A stretch of DNA of 64,000 nt, taken from contig CBDAOB010000005.1 in NCBI GenBank assembly GCA_965197905.1, forward strand, positions 864,001-928,000. Direction: 5' to 3'. Below are positions 4,760 to 52,679 of the stretch, one piece after another; the first letter of the stretch is position 1, and each line of letters starts with the position of its first letter. The position numbers and the translations under genes are program-made. The notes beneath the pieces were generated by a model that worked only from the letters and a program-made list of their open reading frames with translations, was not told the origin of the DNA and made no database searches. The DNA is from Candidatus Latescibacterota bacterium. Lineage in GTDB: Bacteria > Latescibacterota > UBA2968 > UBA8231.

Positions 4760-4802
4760 GGTGGAGGATGGCGTAGGGGGACAGCTATGTCGACCCAGTT
4801 AT

Positions 4803-36978: not shown

Positions 36979-38397
36979 GTGCCGATACGGCCGCCACGCA
37001 AGAACCTGGAAAGAGTGACTATCTACGATCTGAGATTCGAACCCGCAAACGGTGATCGCCAGCTGTTTCTAGACGACCACGGGATTCAACACATCGAGAA
37101 TCTCGTTCGCACGTTACATCCTCCCGCTAAGAAGGGAGCCGTCATCCGTCCCGTCCTCGGGATCGATCCCCCATGTCTCCAGATCCGTTCGGCGCCGATC
37201 TGGGATCCCGAAAAGGAACGGTTCCGCTTCTGGGGCGGTGGTTCGGTGCGAGAGAGCACGGACGGCCTCAACTGGAGTATCGTCGCACCGTATTCAGGTC
37301 CGGCTCTGGTGGTCTACGACGGCGATGATCCCGACCCCGGTCGGAGATACAAGGCATTCTCGCCCGGCCATCGGGCGGTATCTCCAGACGGAGACACCTG
37401 GAGAACCCTTGATCTGCCTCCGGTTCCCAGCCAGGACGAGCACAACTTCTCCTTTGACCAGCGCAAGAGACTGTTCATCGCGACGGTCAAACATGCCGGG
37501 CCCCACGGGCGGTCTGTCTGGCTCTCCACCAGCGAGGATTTCGACACCTGGACCGAACCGGAGCTGATGTTCCATGCCGATGAGGTGGATCAGCTGATGG
37601 GTCGTGAGCGCATACAGGAGCGATTCGCCGATCCCAATCTCGCCTCTCCGTTTTTCGATTTTCCACCGTTCTACAACGTCGACATCTACAACATGTCGGT
37701 CTTTCGCTATGAGAGTGTCTACCTCGGTTTTCCGATGATGTATTGCCAGACCGGCAAGGTAAGCGGAAGCTGGCCCGACTTCGCCAACTGGGAGCTCTCG
37801 GAGGAGATGCGATCCATATTCCAGCGCGACGGGGACTGGACCGGTTTTCATCCCGTCCAATTCGCCTGGAGTCGGGACCTTCGACAATGGGCGCGTCCCC
37901 CTGAAAGGAACCCGTTCATCGACCTCTCACTACTGGGAGGCGGCGACCTCGATCTCACTTCAGTGACCCCACCCTCATTTCCCCTGGTGCGCGACGATGA
38001 ACTCTGGCTCTACTACAACGGCGGCAGACAGTACGGTGGACCGGAACCGAAGCGGGGGGTGGACCAAGAGATGTGCGGTACCTGCCTGGCGGTGATCCGC
38101 CGGGACGGATTCGTCTCGCTGGACGCTGGAGCCGAAGAGGGCGTACTGATTACCAAGCCGTTTCGATTCGCGGGAGAGAGCTTGTTTCTCAATACACAGG
38201 CACCTGTCGGGGAGGTTCGGGCGGAACTGCTCGCAGCCGACGGCACGGCCGCATGCACCTCTGAACCGCTCTCGGGTGACCTCCCTAACGCAGCTTTTCA
38301 ATGGCGGCAGGGGGACCCGGTGACCGTCCGTGATCAGGAGGTCACGCTGCGTCTGGCAGCGCGGGATGCACAGCTGTTCTCCTACTGGATCGAATAG
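36979..38397 (+). CDS. Putative five-bladed beta-propeller glycoside hydrolase-like protein
   Basis: RQLFLDD, STDGLNW, DPGRRYK, SRDLRQW, RRDGFVSLDA, LFSYW pattern. Confidence 0.6.
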   Translation: MPIRPPRKNLERVTIYDLRFEPANGDRQLFLDDHGIQHIENLVRTLHPPAKKGAVIRPVLGIDPPCLQIRSAPIWDPEKERFRFWGGGSVRESTDGLNWSIVAPYSGPALVVYDGDDPDPGRRYKAFSPGHRAVSPDGDTWRTLDLPPVPSQDEHNFSFDQRKRLFIATVKHAGPHGRSVWLSTSEDFDTWTEPELMFHADEVDQLMGRERIQERFADPNLASPFFDFPPFYNVDIYNMSVFRYESVYLGFPMMYCQTGKVSGSWPDFANWELSEEMRSIFQRDGDWTGFHPVQFAWSRDLRQWARPPERNPFIDLSLLGGGDLDLTSVTPPSFPLVRDDELWLYYNGGRQYGGPEPKRGVDQEMCGTCLAVIRRDGFVSLDAGAEEGVLITKPFRFAGESLFLNTQAPVGEVRAELLAADGTAACTSEPLSGDLPNAAFQWRQGDPVTVRDQEVTLRLAARDAQLFSYWIE

Positions 38398-38463
38398 TAC
38401 CTGCTGCGGAAAGCTGAATAGGGTTGAGCGGAGTGCTTGAGTTTGCGGACGTTGTGCCGCCGG

Positions 38464-39519
38464 TTAGGCGAAGCTGGGAGCGTCTGAAGGAACCCGATAG
38501 CCGACGCGACCGCTGACCAGATCTGCCACCTGCACCAGCTCACCACCCCGCTCCGCCGATAGATTCGCCCCTAAAACTGCCGCCAGGGTATTGATTCCAT
38601 CCCCATAAGGACTGAGAGTCTTCGCCGGGTCCCCGCTGCGAACTGCTGCGACGAATGCCCTGGCCTGCAAGGCAAACGCACTATCGGTCCGGTCAGATTC
38701 CCACACGGTCTCACCGTTCTCCACCACCTTGCCACGGCCCCACTCGATCAGGCAGTCGTCGCCAACAACCAGCAGCTGGCGCGATGAAGCGCCGCTTTCC
38801 AGCATCACTCGCGAGGTCGTCGCATTCGCCGTGATGCCGTTGGTCAAGCGGTAATTCACGTTGTAGACATGGGGCAGGTTCATCGGTTCTGGACCTTCGC
38901 CCTTCTTGCGGACCACGTAGAACGCGGAGGTCGCCTCGAAGTCGGCGGCGGTCAGATAGCGCAGCAGATCTATTCGGTGGATGGTATTTTCGACAAAGGA
39001 TCCGCCGCAGAGCTCGTAGCGGCTGGTCCAGTAGCGCTGCGGTTTGCCACTATAGATTGCGTGGATCAACGCGTGGCGCACCGTGCGCTCCCGTAAGAGT
39101 TCCCGTGCCACGTGGGCGGCGGGCTCGTAGCGAGTGACGAAACCAACCTGGGTGATGATGCCCGCTTTCTGCACGGCCGCGTTGTACTCCAGCGCCGTGG
39201 ACATATCCAGGCTCTGGGGCTTCTCCACGAACACCGCTATACCCTTGTCGGCGGCCATCAGCAGCTCGTCGGTGTGGCTCGTCGGTGGGATACACAGGTA
39301 GAGAGCGTCCAGCTCCTCCCTGTCGAGCATTTCGCGATGGTTGCTGTAGACGGTCCGGGGCTTGTAGGTTTTGACTTGCTTGTCGAGCAGCACCTCGTCG
39401 AGGTCGCAAAAGGACTGGAACACCACTTCGTCCTTCTCCACCAGCGGCGCCAACGCCGGCAGATGAGCCAGCGTAGGGATCTGTCCCAGACCAATAAATC
39501 CAAGTCGTACCGGTTCCAT
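38464..39519 (-). CDS. Gfo/Idh/MocA oxidoreductase
   Basis: GFIGLGQI, VFVEKP, GFVTRY, IHRIDLLRY. Confidence 0.9.
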   Translation of the reverse strand: MEPVRLGFIGLGQIPTLAHLPALAPLVEKDEVVFQSFCDLDEVLLDKQVKTYKPRTVYSNHREMLDREELDALYLCIPPTSHTDELLMAADKGIAVFVEKPQSLDMSTALEYNAAVQKAGIITQVGFVTRYEPAAHVARELLRERTVRHALIHAIYSGKPQRYWTSRYELCGGSFVENTIHRIDLLRYLTAADFEATSAFYVVRKKGEGPEPMNLPHVYNVNYRLTNGITANATTSRVMLESGASSRQLLVVGDDCLIEWGRGKVVENGETVWESDRTDSAFALQARAFVAAVRSGDPAKTLSPYGDGINTLAAVLGANLSAERGGELVQVADLVSGRVGYRVPSDAPSFA

Positions 39520-39586
39520 CGCCTCGACCCGTAGAATCCTGCTGGTGCTAGATTACTCCTTGTAATAGCTCGAGCAGGGGAATGTA

Positions 39587-42500
39587 TCAAGCATTCGGAG
39601 GCAGTCCAACAAATTGACGACTGTAGGCATCCAGCAGGGGATCGGACTCGCGTTTGTCGGCGGCGCGTGCGAAGACGACTCCGGGGCAGTTCGCCCGCCG
39701 TGCTCGCGGCAGCAGACCGTAGCCGGAAGGCAGCGCTCGTTCACCCGTTCGCTCCAACTCAAACATCTCTCCCATCACCTCGGCAATGCCCCGTCGAGCT
39801 CCCACGACTCGGGCAAACGCCTCGTGCGGTTCTAACCCCTGCCGCCAACCGTGTCGCGTGGGCACGGTCCTGCCATCGATGTCGGTCGTCGCGATATTCG
39901 GGCCGATCAGCTGGAGGAGCTGCATCGTGTTACCCCTCGCTCCGCTCTTGCAAAGCAGGTTCAGCGGCCCGAATTCGTCGTCGTCGATCTCGTCGCATCT
40001 CGCCAACCAATGCAACGCTTCATCGGTGTAGGACTCCCATTGGTCCCGGTCGTCCTCCTCCGGTGGCGAGGGAAGATCCAGGCTAGTGCCGACGAATGGA
40101 TTCATCGACAGACCAAGGGTTTTGGCTTCTTCGAACCCGCGACGCATCAGGCGTTCGGAGGTCGTAAGGGCCTCCTCCACACCTTTGCGCTCGACCATCT
40201 CGCGCAGCGCATCGACAAGCGGCCGGCGTGTGATGAAGGCGGCACCCTTCTCGATTTTCATGCCGGGGAGTTTTTCGATCTCAGCATGGCCTTCCGGTGT
40301 CATACTCAAGCTGGCCAGTCCCACAACGGCATCCATTCGCGGATCCAGGGAGCTGATCAATTCGGGATTCCGCTCAACCACGGCGCGGATAGATAAGCGC
40401 TGCTCCGCCTCGAGCTGCCCAGCTTTGGTGATCGGGAGAAAAACCGCCATCTGGTCGCCGTCGAAATCCGCGTTCATCAACTCGCAAGCAAGCGGAGGTA
40501 GGCGCAGCGCCCGTCCCGGACACCGAACCGGTCGGAAAGCGAGAAAAGAGGAAATAGGGGAAAGCACCCATCCTGTGTAGACAGTCACCCACGAACCCGC
40601 CAGGAGTTGGTCGAGGGATTCTTCCAGCTCGGGCGTCGGCCTGGTGGGTGCGGTCGAGGGTACGGTTTCGCGAGCGAGCAGCGGGCCGAACAGGGTCCAG
40701 CAGATCTCTTCGGGAAGGCCGATCTGATCGTAGTGCAGTTCAGGCCCAGGGGTGGTAACAGTTCGTCCACTGAACAAGACACTGGCGTTGGGAAGCAAAT
40801 CCTTGGGTTTGACAACCGCATTCAAATAGGCGCCGAGCATCTCTTCGAGGTGTGTCTGCGCACTTTCTATCAAGGCCTTTGGGGCGCTGCTGTCGACCAT
40901 CTGTTGAAGGCGAGAATTGGCCGACTCCAGCTCGGCGTATTCCGGCAGCTCCTCAAGTTGCCCGACCCTCTTCAAACGGTGTTGGCGGAACCATGGGTGA
41001 GGAACGGGAAGCGCAAACTGCAAGCAGGGATTCGGTGGCGACTGGAAGGTCAACCGCAGACATTCCTGTTCGAGGGCAACCTGGATTCCCGCGATCTCCA
41101 GGCGCTGGACGAGTCTTGTAAACGACGGTGCAGGCGGACCTGCCTGTCGCAGCTCTCCCTTGCCGACCTTTTCCGCCAGCGTCTCGGATCCGTCGCGCTC
41201 CGCGGCGCAGGTGTTGAAGAGCTCAGACGCGGTCTCGAGCGCGCCGATGTTCGCCAGCATACCATATTCGTTGGCGCCAACCGTTTGCGGCCGGCCATCT
41301 CCAACCGAGGCATGTATCTTGCCGCGCACATCGTGGATCGTGCGGCCCCAGTAGACCCATCCCGCGGTGCTTGGGCGTTGTAGTCTTTTACCGTTAACGG
41401 TAAGGGTTTCCATGCCGTCGCCGGATATTCCCGCTGTCGTCATTCGCTTGCGGAGCTCCTTCTCGCTCGGCGCCTGAAAAGGAGGCACGATCGCCGGTTT
41501 GCTTTCGGTCTTCGCGATACGACCCATCAACGCTTCCCGTACGACCCCAAAATTCATGCGGGATACCAGGCCGCAGACGCTGTAGATCAGGTCGATGGGG
41601 ACCCCGTTCAGGTGCGGCATCTCTACGTCCGGGAGGATGCACGAGACCACACCCTTCGATCCGTGCCGGTTGGAAATCTTGTCACCTACTTCGATTGGGT
41701 GAGGATCCTGGAAACGGGAAGCCGCCGATTCGCTGAGTACAATCGCATCTTCAAAGGTGTAGCCATCCCAGGAGATAAATGCGGTGAGCAGGTTCCGACC
41801 GCACCAGAATTCCGGGACATCAGGCTCCGCGCCGGTTTGGACCAGAGCCGGTTCTGGTTGCGCCTGGGGGGTCCACTGGCGCATCATATTGGCCCCCATC
41901 AGGAGCCGATTCCCGTCACTGTGTTCGAGAAACGGAATCGCGGAGGCGGACAAACCCAGGTTTGCCGCCGGCGTGTTCTCCACTATTTCCAGGCGACTGT
42001 CCCGAATCTCTGCCCCCTGTGCGATGGTGAGGATGCGTCCGACGTTGGGCCCTTCGGGGGTTTCGAAGGGGCAGGTGCGGCCGAAATGACCGGGGGTGAA
42101 GACCTTCTTGCGCTCAGGAATCGACACCCGGCGCAGATGTACTTGCCGAGATAACCAGTTTATTTCGACCAGTTCCTCACCAAGCTGCTGGAGGAATTCG
42201 CGAACCCAGTCGGTGATCGGTACCCATGCGGCAGCAAGGGTTTCCTCCCATTGCATCTCTTGCGGTGCGTCTCCCAGGCGCTGCTCAACAAAGTGGAACA
42301 ACTGCTCGCCCACACAGCGAATCTCAGCTCGATCGAGATCGTCCTCGGTGGCTTTCGGAGATACAACAAGCCACCGACCGTCCATCTCGAAAACCCCCTC
42401 GTCATTTGGCTCAGGCACATCGTCATGTTCCACCACGACCTCGCCGTCCTTTCCGCGCAGAACCACCTTGACCCGGCACCTATGATGTCCGGCTGCTTCG

Positions 42501-42610
42501 GTATGATATCCCACAAGTGGAATCCGCTCGCTCAGTAATTGCGGCAGCAGTTCCTGGATGAACCGATCCCACGAGGTTTTGTGCCAGGGTGCCCCGTAGC
42601 TCAACTTCAT
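39587..42610 (-). CDS. Miniaturised single-chain RNA polymerase beta-beta' (RpoB-RpoC) fusion-like protein, ~1007 aa
   Basis: Colinear RpoB motifs (HFGRTCPFETPEGPNVG, IPFLEHSDGNRLLMGANMMRQ, WDGYTFEDAIVLSE, GDKISNRHGSKGVVS, SRMNFG) then RpoC motifs (PVPHPWF, SGRTVTTPGP, NADFDGDQMAV at 40454-40474, SGARG, GARRGIAE); GGAGG RBS; ATG overlaps the sigma stop codon. Confidence 0.9.
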   Translation of the reverse strand: MKLSYGAPWHKTSWDRFIQELLPQLLSERIPLVGYHTEAAGHHRCRVKVVLRGKDGEVVVEHDDVPEPNDEGVFEMDGRWLVVSPKATEDDLDRAEIRCVGEQLFHFVEQRLGDAPQEMQWEETLAAAWVPITDWVREFLQQLGEELVEINWLSRQVHLRRVSIPERKKVFTPGHFGRTCPFETPEGPNVGRILTIAQGAEIRDSRLEIVENTPAANLGLSASAIPFLEHSDGNRLLMGANMMRQWTPQAQPEPALVQTGAEPDVPEFWCGRNLLTAFISWDGYTFEDAIVLSESAASRFQDPHPIEVGDKISNRHGSKGVVSCILPDVEMPHLNGVPIDLIYSVCGLVSRMNFGVVREALMGRIAKTESKPAIVPPFQAPSEKELRKRMTTAGISGDGMETLTVNGKRLQRPSTAGWVYWGRTIHDVRGKIHASVGDGRPQTVGANEYGMLANIGALETASELFNTCAAERDGSETLAEKVGKGELRQAGPPAPSFTRLVQRLEIAGIQVALEQECLRLTFQSPPNPCLQFALPVPHPWFRQHRLKRVGQLEELPEYAELESANSRLQQMVDSSAPKALIESAQTHLEEMLGAYLNAVVKPKDLLPNASVLFSGRTVTTPGPELHYDQIGLPEEICWTLFGPLLARETVPSTAPTRPTPELEESLDQLLAGSWVTVYTGWVLSPISSFLAFRPVRCPGRALRLPPLACELMNADFDGDQMAVFLPITKAGQLEAEQRLSIRAVVERNPELISSLDPRMDAVVGLASLSMTPEGHAEIEKLPGMKIEKGAAFITRRPLVDALREMVERKGVEEALTTSERLMRRGFEEAKTLGLSMNPFVGTSLDLPSPPEEDDRDQWESYTDEALHWLARCDEIDDDEFGPLNLLCKSGARGNTMQLLQLIGPNIATTDIDGRTVPTRHGWRQGLEPHEAFARVVGARRGIAEVMGEMFELERTGERALPSGYGLLPRARRANCPGVVFARAADKRESDPLLDAYSRQFVGLPPNA

Positions 42611-43203
42611 TCGAATTCCTCCCAGTCTATGCCGAGGGCTTTCCACCTTCTGCCGATCTCCCTGCGGCCGTAATGTAAGCGCGATTTTACGGTTCCCGGA
42701 GGTATGCCCAGTTCCTGGGCGACCTCCTTCACCTCCATCTGGGCGTCGTAGATCAAACGCATCACCTCTCGTTTGTCTTCCGGCAGGTCGTCCACGAGAT
42801 CCTGCAATCTATCGCGTACCTCCTTTCGTTCGAGCAGCGTGTCCGCACCAAGCGCAGCCGCATCGACCAACCACACCGGGACGTCGCTTTCATCCTCTTC
42901 AAGATCGAGCCCGGAAGCTTCCAGCGGCTGCTGGCGGCGGCGACGCACGGTGCGGATATGGTTGAGGGCCAGATTGGTGGCTATGCGGTAGAGCCACGAC
43001 AGCAACGATGAACCGCTCCACTGCGCGGAGTGCGACCAGACCCGTAGAAACAACTCCTGGAGCAGGTCTTCGGCCGCACCTCTGTCGCGCACCATCCGTT
43101 GCAGATGGCGAACTAGATCGGTGGAGTATCGTTGATGGAGCTCTTCGAACGCCTTTTCGTCCCGGCTTCGAATGCGCACCATGAGGTCATGGTCAGTGTC
43201 CAA
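42607..43203 (-). CDS. ECF-type sigma-70 family RNA polymerase sigma factor
   Basis: Region 2 AEDLLQELFLRVW...SWLYRIATNLALNHIR; region 4 LPEDKREV...EVAQELGIPPGTVKSRLHYGR; TTG start after AGGGAGG. Confidence 0.93.
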   Translation of the reverse strand: MDTDHDLMVRIRSRDEKAFEELHQRYSTDLVRHLQRMVRDRGAAEDLLQELFLRVWSHSAQWSGSSLLSWLYRIATNLALNHIRTVRRRRQQPLEASGLDLEEDESDVPVWLVDAAALGADTLLERKEVRDRLQDLVDDLPEDKREVMRLIYDAQMEVKEVAQELGIPPGTVKSRLHYGRREIGRRWKALGIDWEEFE

Positions 43204-43220
43204 ACAACCTCCCTACTGCT

Positions 43221-43249
43221 CATGACACCGAATGAAACGGAGGGGTTCA
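43221..43249 (-). promoter_or_regulatory. Candidate ECF (autoregulatory) promoter
   Basis: TGAACC-N17-GTCATG on the minus strand just upstream of the sigma RBS. Confidence 0.55.
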
Positions 43250-43274
43250 AAGAAAAATATAGTATGGTGGGTTG

Positions 43275-43320
43275 TTGACTCTCTGCCTGGCTGCAATATA
43301 TTGACTACTATAGGTAGTTA
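43275..43320 (+). promoter_or_regulatory. Sigma70-type promoter with adjacent palindromic operator for the TrmB-ilvE unit
   Basis: TTGACT-16 bp-TATATT followed by TGACTAC-TATAG-GTAGTTA inverted repeat. Confidence 0.5.
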
Positions 43321-43349
43321 ATAATCAGGCAAAGGAACTGCTCATTCAG

Positions 43350-44136
43350 TTGGGCTTGAGCGAATACGAAGCCGGAGCCTATCTCTCCCTCCTGAGCTGC
43401 CAACCAGCAACGGCATACGAACTTGCCAAGGTATCCGGCATCCCGAGCTCGAAAATCTATGAAACAGCCAACCGCCTGGTAGACAAGAAGCTTATCGAGC
43501 CGGTTACCGCCGATAGTGGACGCGGGCAACGCTACATCGCCGTGGGGGCCGAGGACTTTATCTCCATCAAACGCGAGGAGGTTGCGCGCCAGACAAACGT
43601 GCTTGAGCCTCTCCTGAAGGCCGCCAGCAACGGTATGGAAGCGGACTTTATCTGGCAACTGGACGGGGCCGACGGGCTCGAGGATAAAACGCGCCCAATT
43701 GATTCGGGAGGCAGAAGGAACCGTGTTGGCCTCCCTGTGGCAAGCCGAGTTCGATGCCTATGACGACGATCTGCAAGCCGCCGAGCGGTGGGGTGTCGGT
43801 CTCGCCCTGGTGCACTACGGCGCGCCCGCCAGGCGCTTGGGGGCAACCTTTCACCACCCCGTGGAAGAGACGATCCGGCAGGAACGGGGCGGGCGCGGCC
43901 TTACCCTCGTTGTCGATCAACGCTGCGTGGTCATCGCCACTTACTTCGACGACGGTCGCGTGGAAGGGGCCTGGAGCCGAAATCGGGCGTTTGTCTTTGT
44001 TGCCGAAGACTGCGTCCGGCACGACGTCTATATCACCAAGGTTACGGCAACCATGGATGACGATCTCAAGCGCAACTTCGGGGCGGACTACGAAAAACTG
44101 CGTGATGTGTTTCAAGCGGTGGAGCGGGAGTCGTGA
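43350..44136 (+). pseudogene. TrmB family transcriptional regulator, frameshifted near 43694-43696
   Basis: LGLSEYEAGAYLSLL...AKVSGIPSSKIYE wHTH in ORF 43350-43763; effector domain (LTLVVD...HDVYI) in ORF 43699-44136; removing one C joins them. Confidence 0.8.
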
Positions 44137-45029
44137 AAGCGTGCTGGCTGAACGGATCGCTCGTCGATCCGAATTTAGCCTCGGTTTCGGTCTTCGATCA
44201 TGGGCTGCTTTATGGTGACGGCGTTTTCGAGGGGATCCGCTTCTACGACAAGGTCCCGTTCCGTCTCGATGCACACCTTCAACGAGTCGAGCGCTCGGCC
44301 CGGGCGATCGCCCTCGAGATACGGTATTCGCGGACCGAGCTGGCCAGCGCCGTAGGCGAGACGGTCGCCGCCGCCGGCGAACAAGGTGGCTACATACGAT
44401 TGGTGGCGACCCGGGGTATCGGAACTCTGGGTGTCGATCCGCGATCCTGCCGGGTCGGAACGGTGTTCATTCTTGCCGACAAGCTCGAGTTGGCTGACCA
44501 GGCGGTGTATCGAAACGGAGCACGGGTCATTCTTTCAGCCACGCGCAGGCTCGGCGCCGACGAAATCGATCCGCGCATCAAATCGCTGAACTATCTGAAC
44601 CAGATCCTGGCGCGCATCGAAGCCAACCATGCAGGTGCGGACGAGGCCATCATGCTCAATCGTGCCGGGATGGTAGTGGAAGGTACAGCGGACAACGTGT
44701 TTGTCGTCGCCAACAACCGGCTGCTGACGCCGCCACTGTCAGACGGGGCACTGGATGGAATCACTCGTCAGGTGGTGTTCGAGCTCGCCGACAGACTTGC
44801 GATCCCCTGTGGGGAGGGGAGTCTCGCCCCCTACGACCTGTACAACGCGGATGAGTGTTTCCTCACCGGTACCGGAGCCGAGCTCATTCCTGTGGCGGAG
44901 GTTCAGGGCCGGCGGATTGGTAGGGGAGAACACGCAATCTTCGAACGCTTGCGGTCCGCTTACAGTGAACTGATCAAAGAAGAGACAACCTTGGATCTTT
45001 GCTCGAAAGATGCTACTGTTCTGTGTTGA
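44133..45029 (+). CDS. ilvE: Branched-chain amino acid aminotransferase (class IV PLP)
   Basis: DHGLLYGDGVFEGIR, IKSLNYL, EGTADNVF, LDGITR, ADECFLTGTGAE. Confidence 0.88.
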   Translation: MKACWLNGSLVDPNLASVSVFDHGLLYGDGVFEGIRFYDKVPFRLDAHLQRVERSARAIALEIRYSRTELASAVGETVAAAGEQGGYIRLVATRGIGTLGVDPRSCRVGTVFILADKLELADQAVYRNGARVILSATRRLGADEIDPRIKSLNYLNQILARIEANHAGADEAIMLNRAGMVVEGTADNVFVVANNRLLTPPLSDGALDGITRQVVFELADRLAIPCGEGSLAPYDLYNADECFLTGTGAELIPVAEVQGRRIGRGEHAIFERLRSAYSELIKEETTLDLCSKDATVLC

Positions 45030-45072
45030 TTCGCGAACAGCCGTGTCCTTAGAGAACAGGTCCAGCGTCATA

Positions 45073-46263
45073 TTGATTCGTACCCTCGCCGTCATCGTTC
45101 TACTCCTCGCGGCCCACCGCACGGCATACGCCGTCGAGCCGCCCCGAGAGCCCCGACACGAATTCACCTTCGTCGTTCTCGGCGACAGCCAGTTTCATCT
45201 TCCGAACACCTTCAACAGGCTGATCGACGAGATCGTACATCTCTATCCCTCGTTCGTCATTCAGGTGGGGGATATGATCAGCGGTTACGTCGAAGATCTG
45301 GACGAATTTCGCGCCCAATGGAAGCGGTTTCACGCCCAGATCGCTCCTCTCGGCGAGATTCCGTTCTACCCGGTTCCCGGGAATCATGACGTGCTCGATG
45401 CCAGTCACAAACCCGGCGGCGAAAAGATCTACAAAGAGGTCTGGGGCGACACCTACTACTCCTTCGATTATCGCAACGCGCATTTCATCATCTTGAACAC
45501 CGACGATCGCGATGGAAGCGAGATCACCGGGGAGCAACTGAATTGGTTAAAGAGAGATCTTGGAGGTGCGCGCAAGCAGGATCACATATTCGTCTTTTTC
45601 CACCGTCCGATCTATTCGCTCAAGAACGAGGAAGAGCTGCACAAGCTGTTTGTGGAACACGGGGTGATCGCTGTGATCTACGGACACAGGCATCACTTGC
45701 ACTACCGGGAGCGAGATGGCATTCCATACATGATGACGATGAGCGCGACGAAACTGAGTACCCCGTTTCCCCTCGAAGCAGGAAATATGCATCACATGTT
45801 GCTGGTTACCGTGCGCGACAACACCTTTCGCATTGCTGTCGTTAAGGCCGGATCGGTGCTGCCGCCCGACATCGTTACTCCCAAGGACAACAGCCGGCTA
45901 TACAATCTCCATCGGCGATTTTTCGAGGAGGAGGAAATCGCGTTCGAGAAGCTCCAACGAAAGGACGATGGCTATGAGGTCGTCCTTCGGGTGAACAACC
46001 TGTCCGATCAAGACCTGCTGGCATTCTTCGAATGGCAACTTCCAAATGCCCGCTGGTCCGTGGATCCATCAAAGGGGCGGCGGGTGTCATTGCCTGCTGG
46101 AACAGAAGAGCACCCGATAACCTTTCTCCTGCGGCGCGACAATCCTCATACCCCCGAGGCGTTCCCCTCCTGCGTTGCCAGCTTGTTGTACCTCACCTCC
46201 GCCGGCGACGTCGTCAAACTCGAACATACCTTCGAAATCCTCGCCGAAGTCGAAGAGCGGTAG
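45073..46263 (+). CDS. Secreted calcineurin-like metallophosphoesterase
   Basis: Signal peptide; LGDSQ, VGDMI, PGNHD, FFHRP, GHRH; start uncertain. Confidence 0.8.
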   Translation: MIRTLAVIVLLLAAHRTAYAVEPPREPRHEFTFVVLGDSQFHLPNTFNRLIDEIVHLYPSFVIQVGDMISGYVEDLDEFRAQWKRFHAQIAPLGEIPFYPVPGNHDVLDASHKPGGEKIYKEVWGDTYYSFDYRNAHFIILNTDDRDGSEITGEQLNWLKRDLGGARKQDHIFVFFHRPIYSLKNEEELHKLFVEHGVIAVIYGHRHHLHYRERDGIPYMMTMSATKLSTPFPLEAGNMHHMLLVTVRDNTFRIAVVKAGSVLPPDIVTPKDNSRLYNLHRRFFEEEEIAFEKLQRKDDGYEVVLRVNNLSDQDLLAFFEWQLPNARWSVDPSKGRRVSLPAGTEEHPITFLLRRDNPHTPEAFPSCVASLLYLTSAGDVVKLEHTFEILAEVEER

Positions 46264-46360
46264 CCCGCAACGCACCGTTGCCCTCGGGCTTGGCACTGTT
46301 CATTCCCGCCGTTTGTTTCGTGTTTATGGGGCATTCCCTGAGACCTCGTTTCATTGGCAC

Positions 46361-49300
46361 ATGAAGGCACTTCGCGAATCTCTATTGCCTCGACTCTCCG
46401 TCGAGCGACCCACCGCCGTAATCATGGTGCTCACGGCCTTGCTGGTGGTGGGATTCATCGCCTACACCCGAATCTCGGTGAGCATGTGGCCGGGAGGATT
46501 CGAGGGCAAATGGCTCGGCTTCTGGACCTCGTACGAGAATGCGACCCCTGCCGACGTCGAGTCCACGATCACTCGCCGGATCGAAGAGGCGCTGTCCACT
46601 CTTCCGCGGGTTGAGCGCATCTGGACCGGCAGCTTCCCCGACGGAGTCTGGACCTCCATACGGTTTCTTCCGGGAACCGACATGACCCAGGCCTACGGCG
46701 ACCTGTGGGAGCGGTTGCATCGGGTGGCACCAGAACTCCCGGAAATCAGTCGGAGGTTTTGGGTGCGTCGATGGGACCCCGATGATAATCCCCTGGTCTG
46801 GACCAGCGCAGCGTTTCCGGAAGGCATAGAGCGGCCCTTCGACCTGCTCGACAGGTTCCTAAAGCCTTACCTGTTGCGTGTTGACGGCGTGGCCCAGGTG
46901 GAGATCTGGGGCGCCGGCCATAGGGAGGTCCACGTGCAGATGGACCTGGAGCGCATGCGCCGTCACGGGGTGGAGGCTCCGGAGCTGGTCCGCAGCATGC
47001 AAGACCTGAACCTGGCGATACCCAGCGGCTTCGTGCGCGACGGCGGCCGGAAGCTGTACATGCGCTCCCTGGAAGTGCTCAATTCTATCGAGGAGATACA
47101 GACGACTACGGTCGACTGGGATCATAATCTGAAGCTCGAGGACCTGGCCACCATCGAGCTGGTACAGAAAAACTGGCGCTCCTCCCGGCTCGACCGGAAA
47201 GAGGCACTGTACGTCGTGATCTGGCGCGAGGCGGGGGCCAACATGGTGGAGGTTTCGCGGGCGATACTCGCCGCCATCGATGAGGTCAGAGGCCGCCCGG
47301 AGCTTCGCGGCGCCGACATAAAGGTTCTCGACGATGGGGGCGCCCGGGTCACCGAAGCGATAGACAACCTGAAGTCGTCCGGTCTATGGGGAGGATTGTT
47401 CGCCGCCATCGTCCTCTTCCTCTTTCTGCGCACCATCAGCATGACCCTCGTGATCACAATGGCGATCCCTTTGTCGATCCTCTCGGTGATCGTGGTGCTC
47501 TATTTCCTCGATTGGTCGCTCAACCTCGCGACTATGATGGGCTTGATGCTCAGCCTCGGTCTGGTGGTGGACAATGCCATCGTCATCGTCGAGAACATCT
47601 ACCGCAAGCGCAATCAGGGTGTGGCGCCGAGGGCGGCTTCCGTGGAAGGGGCGGGCGAGGTGGCGATGGCGGTGACCATGGCCACCTTGACGACGATCGT
47701 CGTATTCCTGCCCTTGATCCTGATGAGCGACGACGAACATCTGGCCTTCTGGATGTTACGTCTGGGCATGCCGGTGATCGTGGGCCTGGCCGCTTCCCTG
47801 GTTATCGCGCTGGCGATCATACCTCTCGCTGTTATGCGGTTGCGAGGTACGGACAGGACCGAAGTGAAACTGCTTGCAAGGCTGCGGCGGCGATACGTGC
47901 CCGGTCTCAATTGGGTGCTGCATCACCGATTGGACACCTTCATCGTCGCCGCGCTGGCGCTGGCGAGCATCTGGATTCCGATGGAGGGCCTGAAGAAGAT
48001 GGACAAGGTGCAGGGGTACCAGCGCGACATCTCCATGTGGTTCACAATGCCCTCCGGCCAGTCGAGGGAGCAGGCCCTGGAATGGTTCAAGGCGGTCGAA
48101 GACACCGTCATGAACCACCAGGAAGAATACAACGTGTGGACCATTAGGGGCTGGTACAGCAACAGCCGCGCGCGGGTCATCGCGGTATTCAACCCTCCCA
48201 AGCGGATCGAGTGGTACCAGGTCGCGTTCAACGACCTGTCCATCTGGTTGGGCTTGAAGGAAAAGCCGCATATGACCCCTACGGAGGTCGGCGAGGATCT
48301 GAGGAAGCGCTTGCGGCTGCCTGCCGGTTATCTCATGAGGGTGGACTGGGAGGAGGGTGATAGCCGCCCTTCGGTCAACGTCGATCTGCACGGTGAAGAC
48401 ACACGCGTCTTGAGCGGTCTAGCGATGGAGGTCAGGCGCCGGCTGAAAGCCATTCCCGGCCTCCTCGAGGTGTTCACCGAAATCGACATCGGCGCCCCCG
48501 AGCTGCGGGTCCACCTGGACCAGGACCAAGTCCGCAAGTACGGGCTCGATCCCCGGGAGGTTCTGCGGGATATCACCTACGCCTTTCGCGGAACGGACGT
48601 CGCCGGATTTCGCTCCGAAGAGGGGGTGGACATGGATATGCGCGTGCTTCTGTCGGAGGACGACCGGCAGAACATTCAAAGCTTGCGGGAATTCGCTTTT
48701 CGCACCGCCGAAGGCCAGGAGGTTCCGTTGGAGGCACTGGCGTCGATCTCCCAGACCCGCGGCATGAGCCGCATCGCTCGCTTGGACCGGCAAACCACCT
48801 TACAGATAACGGCGGTTGCCAAAAAAGAGGATGCCAAGAAACTGTTCGAGCAGATCGACGACGCGATGAAGGGGTTCGAGATGCCGCGGGGGTATTCGTG
48901 GGACAAGGGTGCGCGCTACGAACGCATGGAAGAGGCGGACGAGTCCCAGCGCTTCGCCATCATCCTGGCGACTACCTGTGTCTTTCTGCTGATGGGCATG
49001 TTGTTTGAATCCCTGATGCTGCCGCTCTCGGTGATTGTCGCCGTCCCGTTCGCGTTTCTCGGGGTCTACTGGACGCTCTACTTGACCGGAAGCCCAATGG
49101 ATATGCTCTCCCAGATCGGCATGGTCCTGTTGATCGGGGTGGTGGTGAACAACGCCATCGTCATGGTAGATCTGACCAATCGTCTGCGAGCCGAAGGGAT
49201 GGATCGGCACGAGGCGCTCATCGAGGCAGGCCGCCACCGGTTCAGGCCGATCCTGATGACGACCTTCACCACGGTGTGCGGACTGATTCCGATGGCAGTG

Positions 49301-49528
49301 GGCAACGCCAAGGTCTTCGGATGGCAATACGCGCCGTTGGGCCGCACCATTATCGGCGGCATGCTCGTGTCCATGGTGCTGACCCTCATAATCGTGCCCC
49401 TCTTCTACACCCTGTTCGACGATCTTCGTCTGTTGATTCGCCGCGTCGTGGTTCTTGGCGATCATCACCGTCGTCGGGTCGCCAGCGGCGAGGAGCCAAC
49501 ATTGGCCGACGCGAAAAGTCATAGCTAG
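46361..49528 (+). CDS. RND efflux transporter permease (AcrB/AcrD/AcrF family)
   Basis: Two large periplasmic loops; GLVVDNAIVIVENI, GVVVNNAIV, RFRPILMTT. Confidence 0.92.
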   Translation: MKALRESLLPRLSVERPTAVIMVLTALLVVGFIAYTRISVSMWPGGFEGKWLGFWTSYENATPADVESTITRRIEEALSTLPRVERIWTGSFPDGVWTSIRFLPGTDMTQAYGDLWERLHRVAPELPEISRRFWVRRWDPDDNPLVWTSAAFPEGIERPFDLLDRFLKPYLLRVDGVAQVEIWGAGHREVHVQMDLERMRRHGVEAPELVRSMQDLNLAIPSGFVRDGGRKLYMRSLEVLNSIEEIQTTTVDWDHNLKLEDLATIELVQKNWRSSRLDRKEALYVVIWREAGANMVEVSRAILAAIDEVRGRPELRGADIKVLDDGGARVTEAIDNLKSSGLWGGLFAAIVLFLFLRTISMTLVITMAIPLSILSVIVVLYFLDWSLNLATMMGLMLSLGLVVDNAIVIVENIYRKRNQGVAPRAASVEGAGEVAMAVTMATLTTIVVFLPLILMSDDEHLAFWMLRLGMPVIVGLAASLVIALAIIPLAVMRLRGTDRTEVKLLARLRRRYVPGLNWVLHHRLDTFIVAALALASIWIPMEGLKKMDKVQGYQRDISMWFTMPSGQSREQALEWFKAVEDTVMNHQEEYNVWTIRGWYSNSRARVIAVFNPPKRIEWYQVAFNDLSIWLGLKEKPHMTPTEVGEDLRKRLRLPAGYLMRVDWEEGDSRPSVNVDLHGEDTRVLSGLAMEVRRRLKAIPGLLEVFTEIDIGAPELRVHLDQDQVRKYGLDPREVLRDITYAFRGTDVAGFRSEEGVDMDMRVLLSEDDRQNIQSLREFAFRTAEGQEVPLEALASISQTRGMSRIARLDRQTTLQITAVAKKEDAKKLFEQIDDAMKGFEMPRGYSWDKGARYERMEEADESQRFAIILATTCVFLLMGMLFESLMLPLSVIVAVPFAFLGVYWTLYLTGSPMDMLSQIGMVLLIGVVVNNAIVMVDLTNRLRAEGMDRHEALIEAGRHRFRPILMTTFTTVCGLIPMAVGNAKVFGWQYAPLGRTIIGGMLVSMVLTLIIVPLFYTLFDDLRLLIRRVVVLGDHHRRRVASGEEPTLADAKSHS

Positions 49529-49633: not shown

Positions 49634-52594
49634 CTACATCAGCTGATGGAAGTCGGGGAACCCGATAAGAGCGCGGACAAAGAAGGAAAGGGTGTCGAAG
49701 TCGGCAACCTGTCGGGCCGGTGCCTCAAACTTTCTGGCGTCTCGGTGCAGGCCGACAATCGTATAGAGATCGTAGCCGAAGTAGCGCGACGAGTTCGTAA
49801 TGGTAGCCATGAGCGTGCGGCGCTCAAAGTCGTCCAGCTCGCGGGCGTTGTTCCTGAATCGATAGGGTAGCGGACCCCAACCCTGGATGCCAAGTCGTGC
49901 CGTGGTTCTTCGCATTATAGGTAACGTCAGCTGGAGTATTGGCATCGTCTCGTACTCCATGCGCATCACCCGGTCCTGCTCCTGATCAACGAATCTGATC
50001 ATCTGGAACTTGAACTTGGGCTGGATGCTGAAGCGGCCGATCATCCAGGTGTAGTCGATGCGGTTCACCATCGTCCAGTGATCCAAACGGCGCTTGCGCT
50101 CTATGCGGCCAGCCGACTGGCGTCCTCCCTGCTGCCAGTTCAACCGCAGCCGGATTTTCTGGACCAGGTTCAGCGTCGACCAGGGTCGCAGCCAACTCTC
50201 CAGGTAGGACTCGTTAACATAACTATTTTCGTACCAAAGTGGATCCTGTCGCTGGTGGTTGAGGAACGACCGATTACCGTGGTAGAAATGGTGCACGAAG
50301 TACTGGTAGGTGTCCGTGAACTGGCGGTCCTCCGTGAAGACGTTGTACTCGTCCGGAATGGAGTCTTCAACCCTTCGAAAGTGGTTCTCCGCAAAGACTC
50401 GCCGCAAGCGCTCGTTGCCGCTTCGTTCGTAGGTGAGCAGCGCATAGGTGGAACGGTTGTTGCGCCCTCCGGCAATCTCGTCGATGTCGTAGCGGCCCAC
50501 GGCGAACATCAGATTTCGCGTCAGGTTGGTCTGCCCGAAGAGATGGTAACCCCGTTGATCGGGATCATACGGATGGTCGGGAGCCAGGTCGTCTTCCCTT
50601 TGATCCGGCTCATCGTTGTTGTTGCGGTCGAGCCCGTAGGTGTAGTCGTTCGGCTCGACCTCGTACATCAGGAACGGCTCCAGGTAATCCGGCAATGCGT
50701 CGCCGTTTCGATTGACGTCCGGAAACCCGTCGTTGTTCTGATCCTGGGCCAGGTAGACCCCGTCGGCGTCGACGCCGATGTCGTTGCGGTAGATGCTCCC
50801 AGGGGTGTAGCCTGAGCGCTTGTCGGGAAACTGGTCGCCGTCCTCGTTGTCCTGCACCAGATCCCAGTACATGGTCTCGTTCGTCAGCGCCTTTATCACG
50901 CTGCGTCTGTCTGACACAACGCCCTTCTCCTCCCAGATGAAGGTGCGCATGGTGGTGGTGAAATCAGGGTTCATGGTGAAGTACTCTCCCCCGAAACTCC
51001 AATTCTTATACCACCTGGTGGCGTTTACGAAGTAGGCCGAACCGTTGTTGGTGAAGCGCGGACTCTCATTGAAGGCAGGCCGATTCTCGATCTCGGCTGG
51101 GAAACGCCGATACACTCGGGAACGAGCGTACTCACCGTTGATCTCAGCGCCCACGAACTGCAGGTTCAAGTCCGCGCTGTAGGTGAAAATGGAGGTGTCT
51201 TCACCCATCTTGAATCGAACCCGCTTTAAGTTGCTGCCATCCTGCACGTTGCCCCGGGCCCGCAACACCGTCCGATAGAACTCGCTCTTGAAGCGACCCC
51301 CGTACCCCTTGCTCCTTGGACTATCTTCATAGAGCGACGCGACGTCGATCCTGTAGTCGTTGGCGACCGTCGCCTCCACCTCCATCGATACCATCAGGGT
51401 CTCACCAGTCATATCGAACAGGAATGCGAGCTGCCAGTCGCCGTCGGCGTGAAGGATTTCAGTGGGCGATTCCATCGTGAAATGGGCAAGGAGGCCCCGG
51501 AGATTGGCCTCTTTGCTCACGTCGATCCCCGCCTCGTGATCCATCCGGTAGAGGTAGTCGGTATATTTGACGATATCGTTGCGACCTACGAAGTAGGTCC
51601 CGTAGAATTCCCCCCTGGTCTTGAAGTACTGACCTGAGATAAAACCACCAGTGGTTGTTGTTCGCCCGACCTGACTGGATATACCGGAGCGGTTGCGGAT
51701 TACCTGAGGCACGATGTCGGGCCGGCGCTCGCCGTTTACCACCAACACCACGTCCCGCACCATGGCGCCCCCTTTCCCGTCGCGGGGCGAGTCGTCAGAG
51801 AACCGCACCACCACCCAATCGGCCAGGGGCGTCCGCGGACGTAGCTTGCCCTTGATGCTGTTTCCCGGCTCCGTGCTCATATAGGTGTGCACATTGGCGA
51901 GATTCAACCCCAACGTAGCAGCGCCGAGCTCCGCCTGCGCCCGCCCTCCTAGTAGAAGGGAGGATTCGCGCGCGAACATCTTGTTTTCGATATGGTACTG
52001 AGACATGGGGTTGTAGTCCCATCCGCGCGGCGAGTACGGGCGTTCGACGCGACTGGCCAGGGTGGTGAGTTTCAAGCGCGGGGTCCACAGGTCTATCCGC
52101 AGCCCATTGTAGTCTACCTGGGAAAGGGTCAACGGCGTAAAGCGAGCAGTGAGTCCATGGCCGACCATGGCGCCGTACCCCCAATTCCCGTATCCGTCCC
52201 GGGCGATCGCGGTGTAGTTGAACGCCTCAATCCAGGTACCCTCATCGATTTGGATGCTGCTGCCCCACTCCTGACTCGGCTGGCGGGTCTCGGTCCAATT
52301 GAAGAGGTCGAAGCCATGGATAAGGTGATTGCCGAATCCATCATATACCGCCTTGGGATGGTAATTGTCCACAAATTGCGTGCCTTGGGGCAGGACGTGG
52401 TGCAGGTAGTTTGAGTAGCGGCCGAGTGCGAAATTCCTGTAACCGGGCCGTTCGTAGCGCAGCACAGGCCGTGAAGGGAGGACTTGAGGAACGTTGGCGG
52501 TAACCTGCTCAGCCTCGAGTTGAAGCGGTCCAGCGAGGTTGGTCAGCATTCCCATCTGAACAACCAGGGTCAACACACGTTGCGCGTTGTGCAT
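49634..52594 (-). CDS. Large hypothetical secreted/outer-membrane protein with Asp-rich Ca-binding-like repeats (paralog of 52680-55418)
   Basis: ~986 aa; hydrophobic N-terminus; DxNxDG motifs; amphipathic beta strands at the C-terminus; start uncertain. Confidence 0.7.
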   Translation of the reverse strand: MHNAQRVLTLVVQMGMLTNLAGPLQLEAEQVTANVPQVLPSRPVLRYERPGYRNFALGRYSNYLHHVLPQGTQFVDNYHPKAVYDGFGNHLIHGFDLFNWTETRQPSQEWGSSIQIDEGTWIEAFNYTAIARDGYGNWGYGAMVGHGLTARFTPLTLSQVDYNGLRIDLWTPRLKLTTLASRVERPYSPRGWDYNPMSQYHIENKMFARESSLLLGGRAQAELGAATLGLNLANVHTYMSTEPGNSIKGKLRPRTPLADWVVVRFSDDSPRDGKGGAMVRDVVLVVNGERRPDIVPQVIRNRSGISSQVGRTTTTGGFISGQYFKTRGEFYGTYFVGRNDIVKYTDYLYRMDHEAGIDVSKEANLRGLLAHFTMESPTEILHADGDWQLAFLFDMTGETLMVSMEVEATVANDYRIDVASLYEDSPRSKGYGGRFKSEFYRTVLRARGNVQDGSNLKRVRFKMGEDTSIFTYSADLNLQFVGAEINGEYARSRVYRRFPAEIENRPAFNESPRFTNNGSAYFVNATRWYKNWSFGGEYFTMNPDFTTTMRTFIWEEKGVVSDRRSVIKALTNETMYWDLVQDNEDGDQFPDKRSGYTPGSIYRNDIGVDADGVYLAQDQNNDGFPDVNRNGDALPDYLEPFLMYEVEPNDYTYGLDRNNNDEPDQREDDLAPDHPYDPDQRGYHLFGQTNLTRNLMFAVGRYDIDEIAGGRNNRSTYALLTYERSGNERLRRVFAENHFRRVEDSIPDEYNVFTEDRQFTDTYQYFVHHFYHGNRSFLNHQRQDPLWYENSYVNESYLESWLRPWSTLNLVQKIRLRLNWQQGGRQSAGRIERKRRLDHWTMVNRIDYTWMIGRFSIQPKFKFQMIRFVDQEQDRVMRMEYETMPILQLTLPIMRRTTARLGIQGWGPLPYRFRNNARELDDFERRTLMATITNSSRYFGYDLYTIVGLHRDARKFEAPARQVADFDTLSFFVRALIGFPDFHQLM

Positions 52595-52679
52595 ACTGTT
52601 CACGATTCGGGTTTCAATGGCATGGCAATACCCAAATAATAGGAAGCTTTTGGAAAGGAACCAAACACGAGAGGGACCG

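Follow-up and report, generated by a model that had tools for sequence, protein, structure and literature searches.

A conserved pairing of an ECF sigma factor with a single-chain mini-RNA polymerase that looks like a second transcription device in uncultured bacteria

In the accepted view, a bacterium has a single core RNA polymerase that it combines with numerous sigma factors. The locus described here, part of a 64,000-nucleotide stretch of a Candidatus Latescibacterota genome (the window; positions are counted from its first letter and all features lie on the minus strand), raises the question of what a shortened single-chain RNA polymerase (mini-RNAP) does directly behind an ECF sigma factor when complete host rpoBC genes are present elsewhere in the genome. 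A putative ECF-type promoter, TGAAC-N15-GGTGTC, at 43224-43249 is followed by a GGAGG ribosome-binding site (43208-43212) and by the ORF of a 198-residue sigma factor with a TTG start (43203-42607). The TGA of this gene (42609-42607) overlaps the ATG of the mini-RNAP (42610-42608) in an ATGA at 42607-42610, and a second GGAGG (42618-42622) lies within the sigma 3' end, 7 nt before the ATG. The mini-RNAP ORF (39587-42610) encodes a fused beta-beta' chain of 1,007 amino acids, as judged from sequence, Pfam and a structure model. The downstream neighbor of the pair is a Gfo/Idh/MocA oxidoreductase and the upstream one a divergent split TrmB, and domain annotation of the neighbors gave no anti-sigma gene adjoining the pair. 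The overlap, the internal ribosome-binding site and the missing anti-sigma gene had been pointed out in an earlier note on this DNA, and all three are borne out by the sequence.

We found the mini-RNAP in 62 of 153 genomes of the phylum. Within this set, the sigma clade is accompanied by the mini-RNAP in 61/61 genomes, 60 of the 62 genomes with a strong mini-RNAP match have the sigma, and none of the 88 genomes without a mini-RNAP match has it. Among 74 family loci, the orthologous sigma lies directly upstream in all 19 that have upstream DNA, and the two genomes with two mini-RNAP copies carry one sigma per copy. Outside this phylum, the pair is present in Poribacteria, Chloroflexota, and Planctomycetota. 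The proposed linkage of mini-RNAP homologs to ECF sigma factors thus stands, rather than a family of unlinked homologs. Of the well-supported splits of the sigma tree, 14 out of 18 are also found in the RNAP tree (39 pairs), which shows co-inheritance only. Among 58 distinct junctions (a count that leaves out 4 further loci, unmeasurable by the script), an overlap is seen in 28 (one genus supplies about half of these), a gap of 0 to 20 nt in 13, of 21 to 400 nt in 13, and of more than 400 nt in 4; 41 therefore overlap or lie at most 20 nt apart. Translational coupling, which the earlier note had put forward, is accordingly frequent but not required, since 17 junctions are not tightly coupled. 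Genes have been inserted between sigma and mini-RNAP in one genus, g30 (an ABC transporter in locus L109), and in one genome, G131, the mini-RNAP is intact while sigma and promoter are deleted. Fusions of sigma and RNAP, suggested as a check, were absent from the best 150 representatives (family members reach 1,101 residues), from 50 loci and from 8 longer sigma matches, the latter being weak evidence. Clustering of 20 loci gave no third gene conserved across phyla. At the level of sequence, sigma and mini-RNAP form a conserved chromosomal module, co-inherited behind one conserved promoter.

The mini-RNAP carries the Pfam domains Rpb2_3, Rpb2_6, and Rpb1_2 in one chain that is 38% as long as host beta plus beta', and falls below the rpoB and rpoC cut-offs (TIGR02013, 166.7 versus 801; TIGR02386, 94.6 versus 963.5). 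The structure model (pLDDT 94.4, pTM 0.91) and structural matches indicate that the two double-psi barrels, the catalytic aspartates, the bridge helix, and the clamp helices are kept; with both barrels and the bridge helix, the modeled protein would belong to the two-barrel RNA polymerases. According to the structure and a segment map, the beta-derived half (residues 1-523, 41042-42610) keeps D288, K311, K319, R351, and H426 and has lost the lobe, fork loop 2, and flap; nothing in the mini-RNAP corresponds to host beta 150-389 and 770-1025 (lobe, flap). This half aligns with 8i23_C over 515 residues (VIA Z 29.5, rmsd 2.5). The beta' half aligns with 6psq_J over 446 residues (Z 27.0, rmsd 8.7). 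It contains the clamp helices (residues 556-599, 40814-40945; model and alignment to host RpoC), a YTGW that replaces the NRAP motif of the family alignment (40568-40579), the NADFDGD catalytic motif (residues 713-719, 40454-40474; sequence and family conservation), and the bridge helix (residues 928-954, 39749-39829; model and structural alignment), followed by about 50 residues matching the beta' C-terminus.

The trigger loop was found in cis in none of 187 family proteins with a profile that scores host RpoC at 112.9 bits and a 1,917-residue fusion at 61.7, and this genome has no stand-alone trigger loop to act in trans. In the model, the chain passes from the equivalent of E. coli 797-798 (end of the bridge helix) to that of 1361-1363 (C-terminus) within 50 residues. 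Residues 962-990 could be read as the end of the bridge helix together with trigger helix 1, which we rejected because E. coli beta' 1361-1363 is where the structural alignments stop; profile support is weak for either reading, with a probability of 0.4 for the C-terminal match. A bridge helix and an N-terminal trigger loop are retained in every RNAP compared in 10.1101/2022.12.01.518664, and deletion of the trigger loop from an archaeal RNAP abolishes promoter-dependent initiation and slows elongation about 30-fold (PMC3737540).

With the canonical RpoB/RpoC core and its ECF sigma (8i23; sigmaE-RPo, PMC6648896), the mini-RNAP shares the barrels, the aspartate triad, and the bridge and clamp helices, as well as the beta' C-terminal clamp segment and an ECF sigma with a -35/-10 promoter. 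It differs in being one chain of 38% of the length with no alpha gene, in lacking lobe, fork loop 2, flap, zinc-binding region, rudder, trigger loop, and jaw, in its changed sigma-binding clamp residues, and in being accessory to a host that retains full rpoBC. Orf6 of the yeast plasmid pGKL2 (K2ORF6p; PMC2919709, PMC6211774) is likewise a beta::beta' fusion of about 980 to 1,000 residues with half of the sequence deleted and without lid, rudder, or trigger homology. However, it belongs to a eukaryotic cytoplasmic virus-like element of probable viral origin, has no sigma, is accompanied by a second subunit, Orf7, that supplies the rest of the beta' regions, and lacks the clamp coiled coil that the mini-RNAP keeps. 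From the bacterial placement of the mini-RNAP in trees that did not contain Orf6, we infer that the two are convergent and not orthologous. YonO of prophage SPbeta (PMC5467207) is another single-chain two-barrel RNAP, of about 100 kDa, and demonstrates that activity is possible in an enzyme with no trigger-loop homology; it is a phage gene sharing few residues with cellular RNAP. The mini-RNAP, in contrast, can be aligned with RpoB/RpoC across hundreds of residues and is a sigma-linked chromosomal gene, with neither the phage location nor the merely motif-level likeness of YonO-like enzymes. The full-length beta-beta' fusions (PRK09603, PRK14844; Helicobacteria, PMC2919709) have the same order, beta then beta', but are housekeeping enzymes of about 2,800 to 2,900 residues, and the mini-RNAP scores only 154 to 162 bits against their cut-offs of 4632 to 5372.

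Single-chain alpha-beta-beta' fusions of 1,900 to 2,300 residues (G000:C3:765313-771066; P0248, P0252, P0259, and P0269) have the lobe-deletion junction and the HPW motif in common with the mini-RNAP, although an alpha domain, the trigger loop, and a larger part of the flap region are preserved in them. The mini-RNAPs nest among these fusions in trees built separately for beta and beta', on long branches and with FastTree support only. The fusions also keep the clamp helices and have no neighboring sigma in the 4 stretches checked; hence, the helices alone imply no sigma partner. The open literature searched gave no description of these fusions or of the mini-RNAP family. Iyer and Aravind are said to have surveyed unusual bacterial RNAPs in 2012 (J Struct Biol). 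The gene pair looks like a second transcription device without an earlier description. We give an even chance to the broader proposal that many uncultured bacteria have a second sigma-dependent RNAP, a two-component holoenzyme of about 1,200 residues without alpha, flap, or trigger loop, that would open its own promoter and synthesize RNA, and whose ancestor would be a single-chain alpha-beta-beta' enzyme that shrank step by step and that the same genome still contains. A second core conserved on the chromosome along with a sigma and a promoter for itself would contradict the one-core view of bacterial transcription; it would be the smallest cellular-type sigma-dependent polymerase, would be an exception to the rule that bacterial chromosomes encode one RNAP, and would amount to a natural deletion experiment on which enzyme parts sigma-dependent initiation can spare (trigger loop, flap, alpha). 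Having only two genes and a 26-bp promoter, the system lends itself to direct tests and, as an orthogonal means of transcription, would be of practical use.

The sigma factor has the Pfam domains Sigma70_r2 and r4_2, with sigma2 and sigma4 intact and no sigma3 in about 200 residues, as in ECF (group 4) factors, and scores 105.6 bits against TIGR02937 (cut-off 42.9). Members of its clade score 148 to 316 bits and the other sigmas of the genome at most 104. The canonical core-binding motif (D46, Q49, E50) is retained in 94 to 95 of 95 sequences, and the acidic linker is nearly as constant (P109 in 93/95, W111 in 92/95, D114 in 95/95, P120 in 94/95). Since this linker region is given as highly divergent among ECFs in PMC6648896, its conservation suggests a private partner. 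In a portion of the PMC7826278 supplement on ECF groups, Rpb1, Rpb2, PF00562, PF00623, and GGTGTC have no match. As described in PMC6648896, ECF holoenzymes are held by the clamp helices, which dock sigma2, and by the flap tip, which docks sigma4. Substitutions at R275, E295, and A302 of the E. coli clamp impair holoenzyme formation (PMC8321222); the equivalents in this copy are A564, A584, and M591, and among the 67 distant homologs the R275 position is A in 50, the E295 position is A in 45, and the A302 position is mixed A/R. A predicted complex of mini-RNAP 1-800 with sigma, run without folded controls, gave a median of 0.24 (0.34, 0.24, and 0.22) against a mark of 0.32.

The reading that we prefer, tentatively and with a little less than even confidence, is a private complex of sigma and polymerase that is active, though slow, at its own promoter and damps a feedback loop driven by the host core; here we infer both binding and catalysis. 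The sigma would first fire the operon promoter with the host core, which would supply the flap required to position sigma4 on the -35 box, and positive feedback would follow. Co-translated mini-RNAP may bind the same sigma via its retained, re-surfaced clamp helices and would therefore both draw it off the host core, replacing the missing anti-sigma, and form a private holoenzyme. This holoenzyme would be catalytically competent, slow and poorly processive without trigger loop, flap, lid, rudder, lobe, and jaw, and would act at the module's own promoter, making short or slowly made RNA and not regulon mRNAs. The survival of the clamp helices while most non-catalytic modules are lost speaks for such a mechanism; the R275 and E295 positions being mostly A and the A302 position variable, often R, speak against it, as do the 17 loose junctions, the G131 mini-RNAP, the effects of the archaeal trigger-loop deletion, and the invariant active-site residues missing from this copy and from 21 of 67 distant homologs.

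The changed clamp residues and the deleted flap would also be accounted for if the sigma were a dedicated on-switch used with the host core and the mini-RNAP a sigma-independent effector that does not bind it, for example an enzyme that extends primers, resembles a primase, or acts on single-stranded templates. We regard this as unlikely. It agrees with the sigma keeping its canonical core-binding motif and sigma4, with the fixed -35/-10 spacing of the promoter and with the genes inserted in g30; a promoter dependent on this sigma would by itself lead to co-occurrence, and YonO shows that a single-chain enzyme of this kind has a precedent (PMC5467207). However, an autoregulated ECF would be left without a negative regulator in any of the 20 loci, and neither the tight coupling of the 41 junctions nor the unusual conservation of the sigma linker would be expected.

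The full set of eight invariant catalytic-site residues, defined after PMC2919709, is present in 104 of 120 close homologs and in 46 of 67 distant ones. In the latter, the three aspartates are kept in 64 to 65 (mean column majority, 0.53), and the triad together with K311, K319, R351, H426, Q245, and R235 in 61 to 66; at least one invariant residue is missing in 21, in 3 of them from the aspartate triad. This copy keeps six of the eight (R679T and P681W are changed), and locus L003 has YCGW at the NRAP site, where R is found in 117/120 homologs. The dN/dS of the mini-RNAP is 0.14 to 0.21 in 4/4 pairs and 0.14 in the lineage without R679 and P681; by this sequence-based measure, this copy is under purifying selection despite the two lost invariants. 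These counts and the three changed sigma-binding positions weaken one of the two models in the earlier note, an inert core-mimicking anti-sigma held by the clamp helices, whose active-site remnants would be structural or would sense a ligand (NTP, RNA-DNA hybrid) and release the sigma. We consider this model improbable: the residues that changed are those binding sigma on the clamp, the yeast equivalent of R679 tolerates alanine with no growth defect (R446A; PMC2919709), and a sigma whose sole conserved target is its own inhibitor would have no output. It would explain the lost trigger loop, the altered invariants of the 21 distant homologs, the low dN/dS after loss of R679 and P681, and the +1 position behind an ECF without another regulator, ECFs being usually autoregulated and co-encoded with regulators or targets according to PMC7826278. 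The +1 protein itself has only RNAP domains in Pfam and NCBIfam, with no anti-sigma domain or membrane anchor. Should it prove to be a decoy, it would still represent a novel type of control, in which a polymerase has been turned into an anti-sigma.

TGAAC-N15-GGTGTC is found in 18/18 loci compared, with the N15 spacer in 17, and the fixed-spacer pattern matches 69 of 76 loci. In this genome, the operon promoter scores highest with the PWM (30.1 bits, against 18.8 for the runner-up and a maximum of 16.4 in the reversed-genome control). The promoter that had been placed upstream of the sigma thus holds at 43249-43224, where a conserved -35/-10 motif of the kind expected for an autoregulatory ECF probably serves autoregulation. 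Consensus sites are not in excess in carriers (1.5 per carrier genome, own site removed, versus 1.8 per non-carrier; 153 genomes), the exact pattern gives 13 matches in 5 other genomes versus 17 in the reversed control, and the 4 other exact sites of this genome all sit inside long reading frames; in scans with the full consensus, the operon promoter is the sigma's only conserved site. The other model of the earlier note, a productive private holoenzyme with its own regulon, finds no support here, and the absence of flap and of a trigger loop in cis or stand-alone adds to the case against it. Even the yeast plasmid enzyme, which is the transcription machine of its element although lid, rudder, and the greater part of the clamp are absent (PMC6211774), has a second subunit bearing the post-split beta' regions. 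On the other hand, the active site is conserved, YonO is processive without trigger-loop homology (PMC5467207), and promoters of the -10 or extended -10 type remain usable by flap mutants (PMC8321222); a regulon of more degenerate promoters (e.g., -10 only, as expected without the flap) would escape consensus scans. We hold such a regulon to be quite doubtful.

We rejected the locus as a mobile element or defense system (the RNAP has no PADLOC match, GC is flat and no full-length phage or plasmid match was found, none of 50,697 phage and 72,556 plasmid records matching at 80% coverage), and its neighboring genes are metabolic. No intrinsic terminator was found on the minus strand between 38000 and 43700, nor an Rfam match within 37000-46000. 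An assembly artifact or pseudogene was also rejected, given the purifying selection and a sequencing-run contig (X1), perhaps from the source sample, that spans 40445-44300 with 2 differences.

The sigma gene is a 198-aa ORF with a TTG start (43203-42607, minus strand), classed as an ECF sigma factor by profile search, and its partner is a 1007-aa ORF, the mini-RNAP (42610-39587, minus strand), with the Pfam domains Rpb2_3, Rpb2_6, and Rpb1_2 all on a single chain. The two overlap in an ATGA, with GGAGG 7 nt 5' of the mini-RNAP start, as an earlier note had described. That note also saw no anti-sigma gene adjacent, and the pair is indeed flanked by a Gfo/Idh/MocA oxidoreductase gene on one side and, on the other, by a split TrmB in divergent orientation. 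Elsewhere in the genome, the host rpoB (1262 aa) and rpoC (1362 aa) are intact and lie in their customary ribosomal-protein cluster; hence, the mini-RNAP, 38% of the summed length of host RpoB and RpoC, is an extra enzyme. The TrmB-family regulator occupies two ORFs (43350-44136, plus strand), the HTH at 43350-43763 and the effector part at 43699-44136 in another frame, and is likewise in two ORFs at the locus L003. Farther along lie a 1117-aa ORF whose sequence suggests an RND-type transporter (46175-49528, plus strand) and a 1030-aa ORF with many acidic repeats (49634-52726, minus strand).

Sequence comparison indicates that the mini-RNAP is a conserved family and not a relic. Among 8000 candidates, 1023 proteins (553-1763 aa) match it at E<=0.001, and the 120 listed matches are the cluster of the query itself plus 119 relatives of full length with 45-59% identity, some of them assigned by name to Chloroflexi, Poribacteria, Armatimonadetes, and Hydrogenedentes. 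The closest named record, L003, is 92% identical and also from Ca. Latescibacterota. dN/dS values are 0.14-0.21 for the mini-RNAP (4/4 pairs) and 0.13-0.17 for the sigma (3/3 pairs). Within the phylum, 62 of 153 genomes have a strong match (65 including three weak fragments), compared with 4/401 sampled genomes in Chloroflexota (phylum of the locus L007) and 3/401 in Planctomycetota (phylum of L012), the center genome counted in both. No phage or plasmid record searched covers 80% of the protein, and in the ESM Atlas it is present as clusters without a name.

The pair's neighborhood, whose conservation the earlier note set as a check, is conserved. We compared 74 loci, 20 from the family and the remainder canonical rpoBC, and an orthologous sigma lies directly upstream in all 19 family loci having upstream DNA. 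The sigmas group into a single clade (148-316 bits, versus <=104 for the genome's other sigmas), found in 61 of the 153 genomes. Of these 61, 60 belong to the 62 genomes that match the mini-RNAP strongly; the clade is in none of the 88 without any match, a count that draws on just 21 scored candidates per genome and in which kin are not independent. In the 61st (G143), the sigma stands beside an RNAP with a frameshifted start at a contig end. Two genomes with a mini-RNAP lack the clade sigma: both genes are broken in G134, and in G131 the RNAP is intact with sigma and promoter cleanly deleted; these exceptions look like decay. Two other genomes (G063 and G115) have two mini-RNAP copies, each with its own sigma. 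Among 39 pairs, 14 of the 18 well-supported sigma splits were found again in the RNAP tree, which shows co-inheritance, not contact. The loci at a stage of decay are L146 (G131), L125 (G134), L147 (G143, sigma intact), and L149 (G088), where fragments of both genes are fused by deletion; at L100, L101, and L129, a sigma with an internal stop or frameshift precedes an open mini-RNAP frame, which may reflect sequence errors or early decay.

Translational coupling held only in part: of 58 junctions, 28 overlap and 13 are within 20 nt, but 13 are at 21-400 nt (most Poribacteria) and four are further apart, so coupling is common but optional. At L109, an ABC transporter is inserted between the two genes (1833-3593, operon strand). 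A similar-looking ORF sits between them at L107 (1650-3512, operon strand), and a 396-aa ORF without Pfam match at L118 (2660-3850, operon strand). Upstream of the pair, on the operon strand, are a DksA/TraR zinc-finger protein by Pfam match (L118:31-936), a type of protein that binds RNAP, and a 310-aa ORF of no known type (L111:875-1840); such upstream genes occur in a few loci of family f4 and were not seen in other groups, probably as local synteny. The sigma-RNAP fusions sought among homologs were not seen in the family representatives, loci, and longer sigma matches examined, and no third gene is common across phyla in the family loci compared.

The confident AlphaFold2 model of the mini-RNAP (pLDDT 94.4, pTM 0.91) superposes on beta with residues 1-519 (Z 29.5, 515 aligned, rmsd 2.5) and, using a separate model of pLDDT 81.9, on beta' with residues 524-1007 (Z 27.0, 446 aligned, rmsd 8.7 to 6psq_J). 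Profile maps against the host subunits show that beta 150-389 and 770-1025 are absent and that the beta' part begins near host residue 101. By RNAP numbering, the missing segments are the lobe and the flap, respectively, and fork loop 2 and rudder are collapsed. The model retains the clamp helices (aa 556-599) and the bridge helix (aa 928-954), after which ~50 residues remain. Structural alignments that extend to the end of the model have their last position at E. coli beta' 1361-1363; where they break off at the bridge helix, it is 797-798. A trigger-loop profile that does detect host RpoC and a 1917-aa fusion of the same genome found none in 187 family proteins, nor any stand-alone trigger-loop ORF in the window's genome. 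This loss is a serious handicap, since an archaeal deletion mutant fails to initiate and elongates ~30-fold more slowly (PMC3737540) and the loop's N-terminal portion is retained in all enzymes compared (10.1101/2022.12.01.518664), although YonO is described as processive without trigger-loop homology (PMC5467207).

All eight invariant residues, as defined in PMC2919709, are kept in 104 of 120 close homologs and 46 of 67 distant ones (further representatives of 900-1110 aa, mutual identity <50%), with the catalytic aspartates kept in 64-65 of the 67. The triad is broken in three distant full-length homologs (P0158, P0159, and P0193), possibly catalytically dead sub-lineages by sequence. In the window copy and L003, the NRAP motif reads YTGW or YCGW, with two of the eight residues lost; the window gene is under purifying selection (dN/dS 0.138), and the yeast equivalent of the NRAP arginine tolerates alanine (PMC2919709). 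The reading of the mini-RNAP as an inert or ligand-sensing decoy is weakened by the conserved active site, and we consider it quite improbable.

The promoter claimed upstream of the sigma (TGAAC-N15-GGTGTC, 43249-43224, minus strand) was recovered in 17 of 18 loci, the 18th having a variant. A fixed-spacer pattern matches 69 of 76 loci, a figure partly circular as the pattern was built from the first loci; the seven misses are one locus without upstream DNA, one site beyond the stretch scanned, and five spacer variants. Scored with a weight matrix built on 48 distinct sites, this promoter reaches 30.1 bits, as against 18.8 for the next site in the genome and <=16.4 for the reversed-genome control. 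The private regulon suggested earlier did not emerge from counting consensus sites: 153 occurrences in 61 carriers (1.5 each once their own site is taken out) versus 162 in 92 non-carriers (1.8 each), with no excess in carriers among the 153 genomes. The window's genome has four other exact sites, all inside long reading frames. From these counts and locations, the operon is, at the sequence level, the sigma's only conserved consensus target. A productive holoenzyme with a hidden regulon of degenerate or -10-only promoters would escape such a pattern, but consensus sites are not commoner in carriers, and we regard it as a poor prospect. A sigma70-like promoter (43275-43302, plus strand) faces the split TrmB, so that it and the ECF promoter stand back to back.

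Sequence comparison shows a sigma, a mini-core, and a promoter that are inherited together, conservation of the active site, the absence of trigger loop, flap, and lobe, and no regulon of consensus sites. On the reading that we tentatively favor, at somewhat short of even confidence, the sigma would drive its own operon with the host core, and the mini-core would bind the sigma, thereby standing in for the missing anti-sigma; their private complex would be catalytically active but slow, working at its own promoter. In the sigma, the acidic motif of region 2.2 and sigma4 are kept, and the linker, which PMC6648896 describes as diverging strongly among ECFs, is unusually conserved. In the mini-RNAP clamp helices, the residues that correspond to E. 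coli R275 and E295 are mostly A, and the one that corresponds to A302 is variable; substitutions there impair E. coli holoenzyme formation (PMC8321222). The sigma could instead be a mere switch for a sigma-independent mini-RNAP, which we think unlikely; in our judgement, the readings in which the two bind are jointly probable.

By analogy, the pair would be a cut-down version of an ECF holoenzyme in its working, with the mini-RNAP falling outside the canonical cores. In architecture, the mini-RNAP comes closest to pGKL2 Orf6, a 982-aa Rpb2::Rpb1 fusion without trigger, lid, or rudder homology (PMC2919709); Orf6 has a second subunit and no clamp coiled coil (PMC6211774), whereas the mini-RNAP keeps its clamp helices. 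The literature searched, with most subscription papers outside its scope, held no description of the family, although the supplement of PMC7826278 may include an ECF group to which the sigma clade belongs. The pair is real, conserved, and, as far as our searches reach, undescribed; its parts belong to known superfamilies, and the system lies outside known ones. If our reading holds, it is a second sigma-linked core enzyme on bacterial chromosomes.

The 1917-aa single chain (G000:C3:765313-771066; L001:5314-11067, plus strand) joins an alpha domain, a reduced beta, and a reduced beta' with a trigger loop, which the mini-RNAP lacks, and has no sigma nearby; the two share the lobe-deletion junction and an HPW motif. 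In separate beta and beta' trees, 15 mini-RNAPs form one clade nested among fusions (support of the enclosing clades 0.99 and 1.0, branches long), for which a fused bacterial enzyme that shrank step by step would be the simplest origin. Related fusions of 1948-2309 aa occur in the representative set (P0248, P0252, P0259, and P0269), and the 1917-aa type is present in 4 of the 153 genomes of the phylum.
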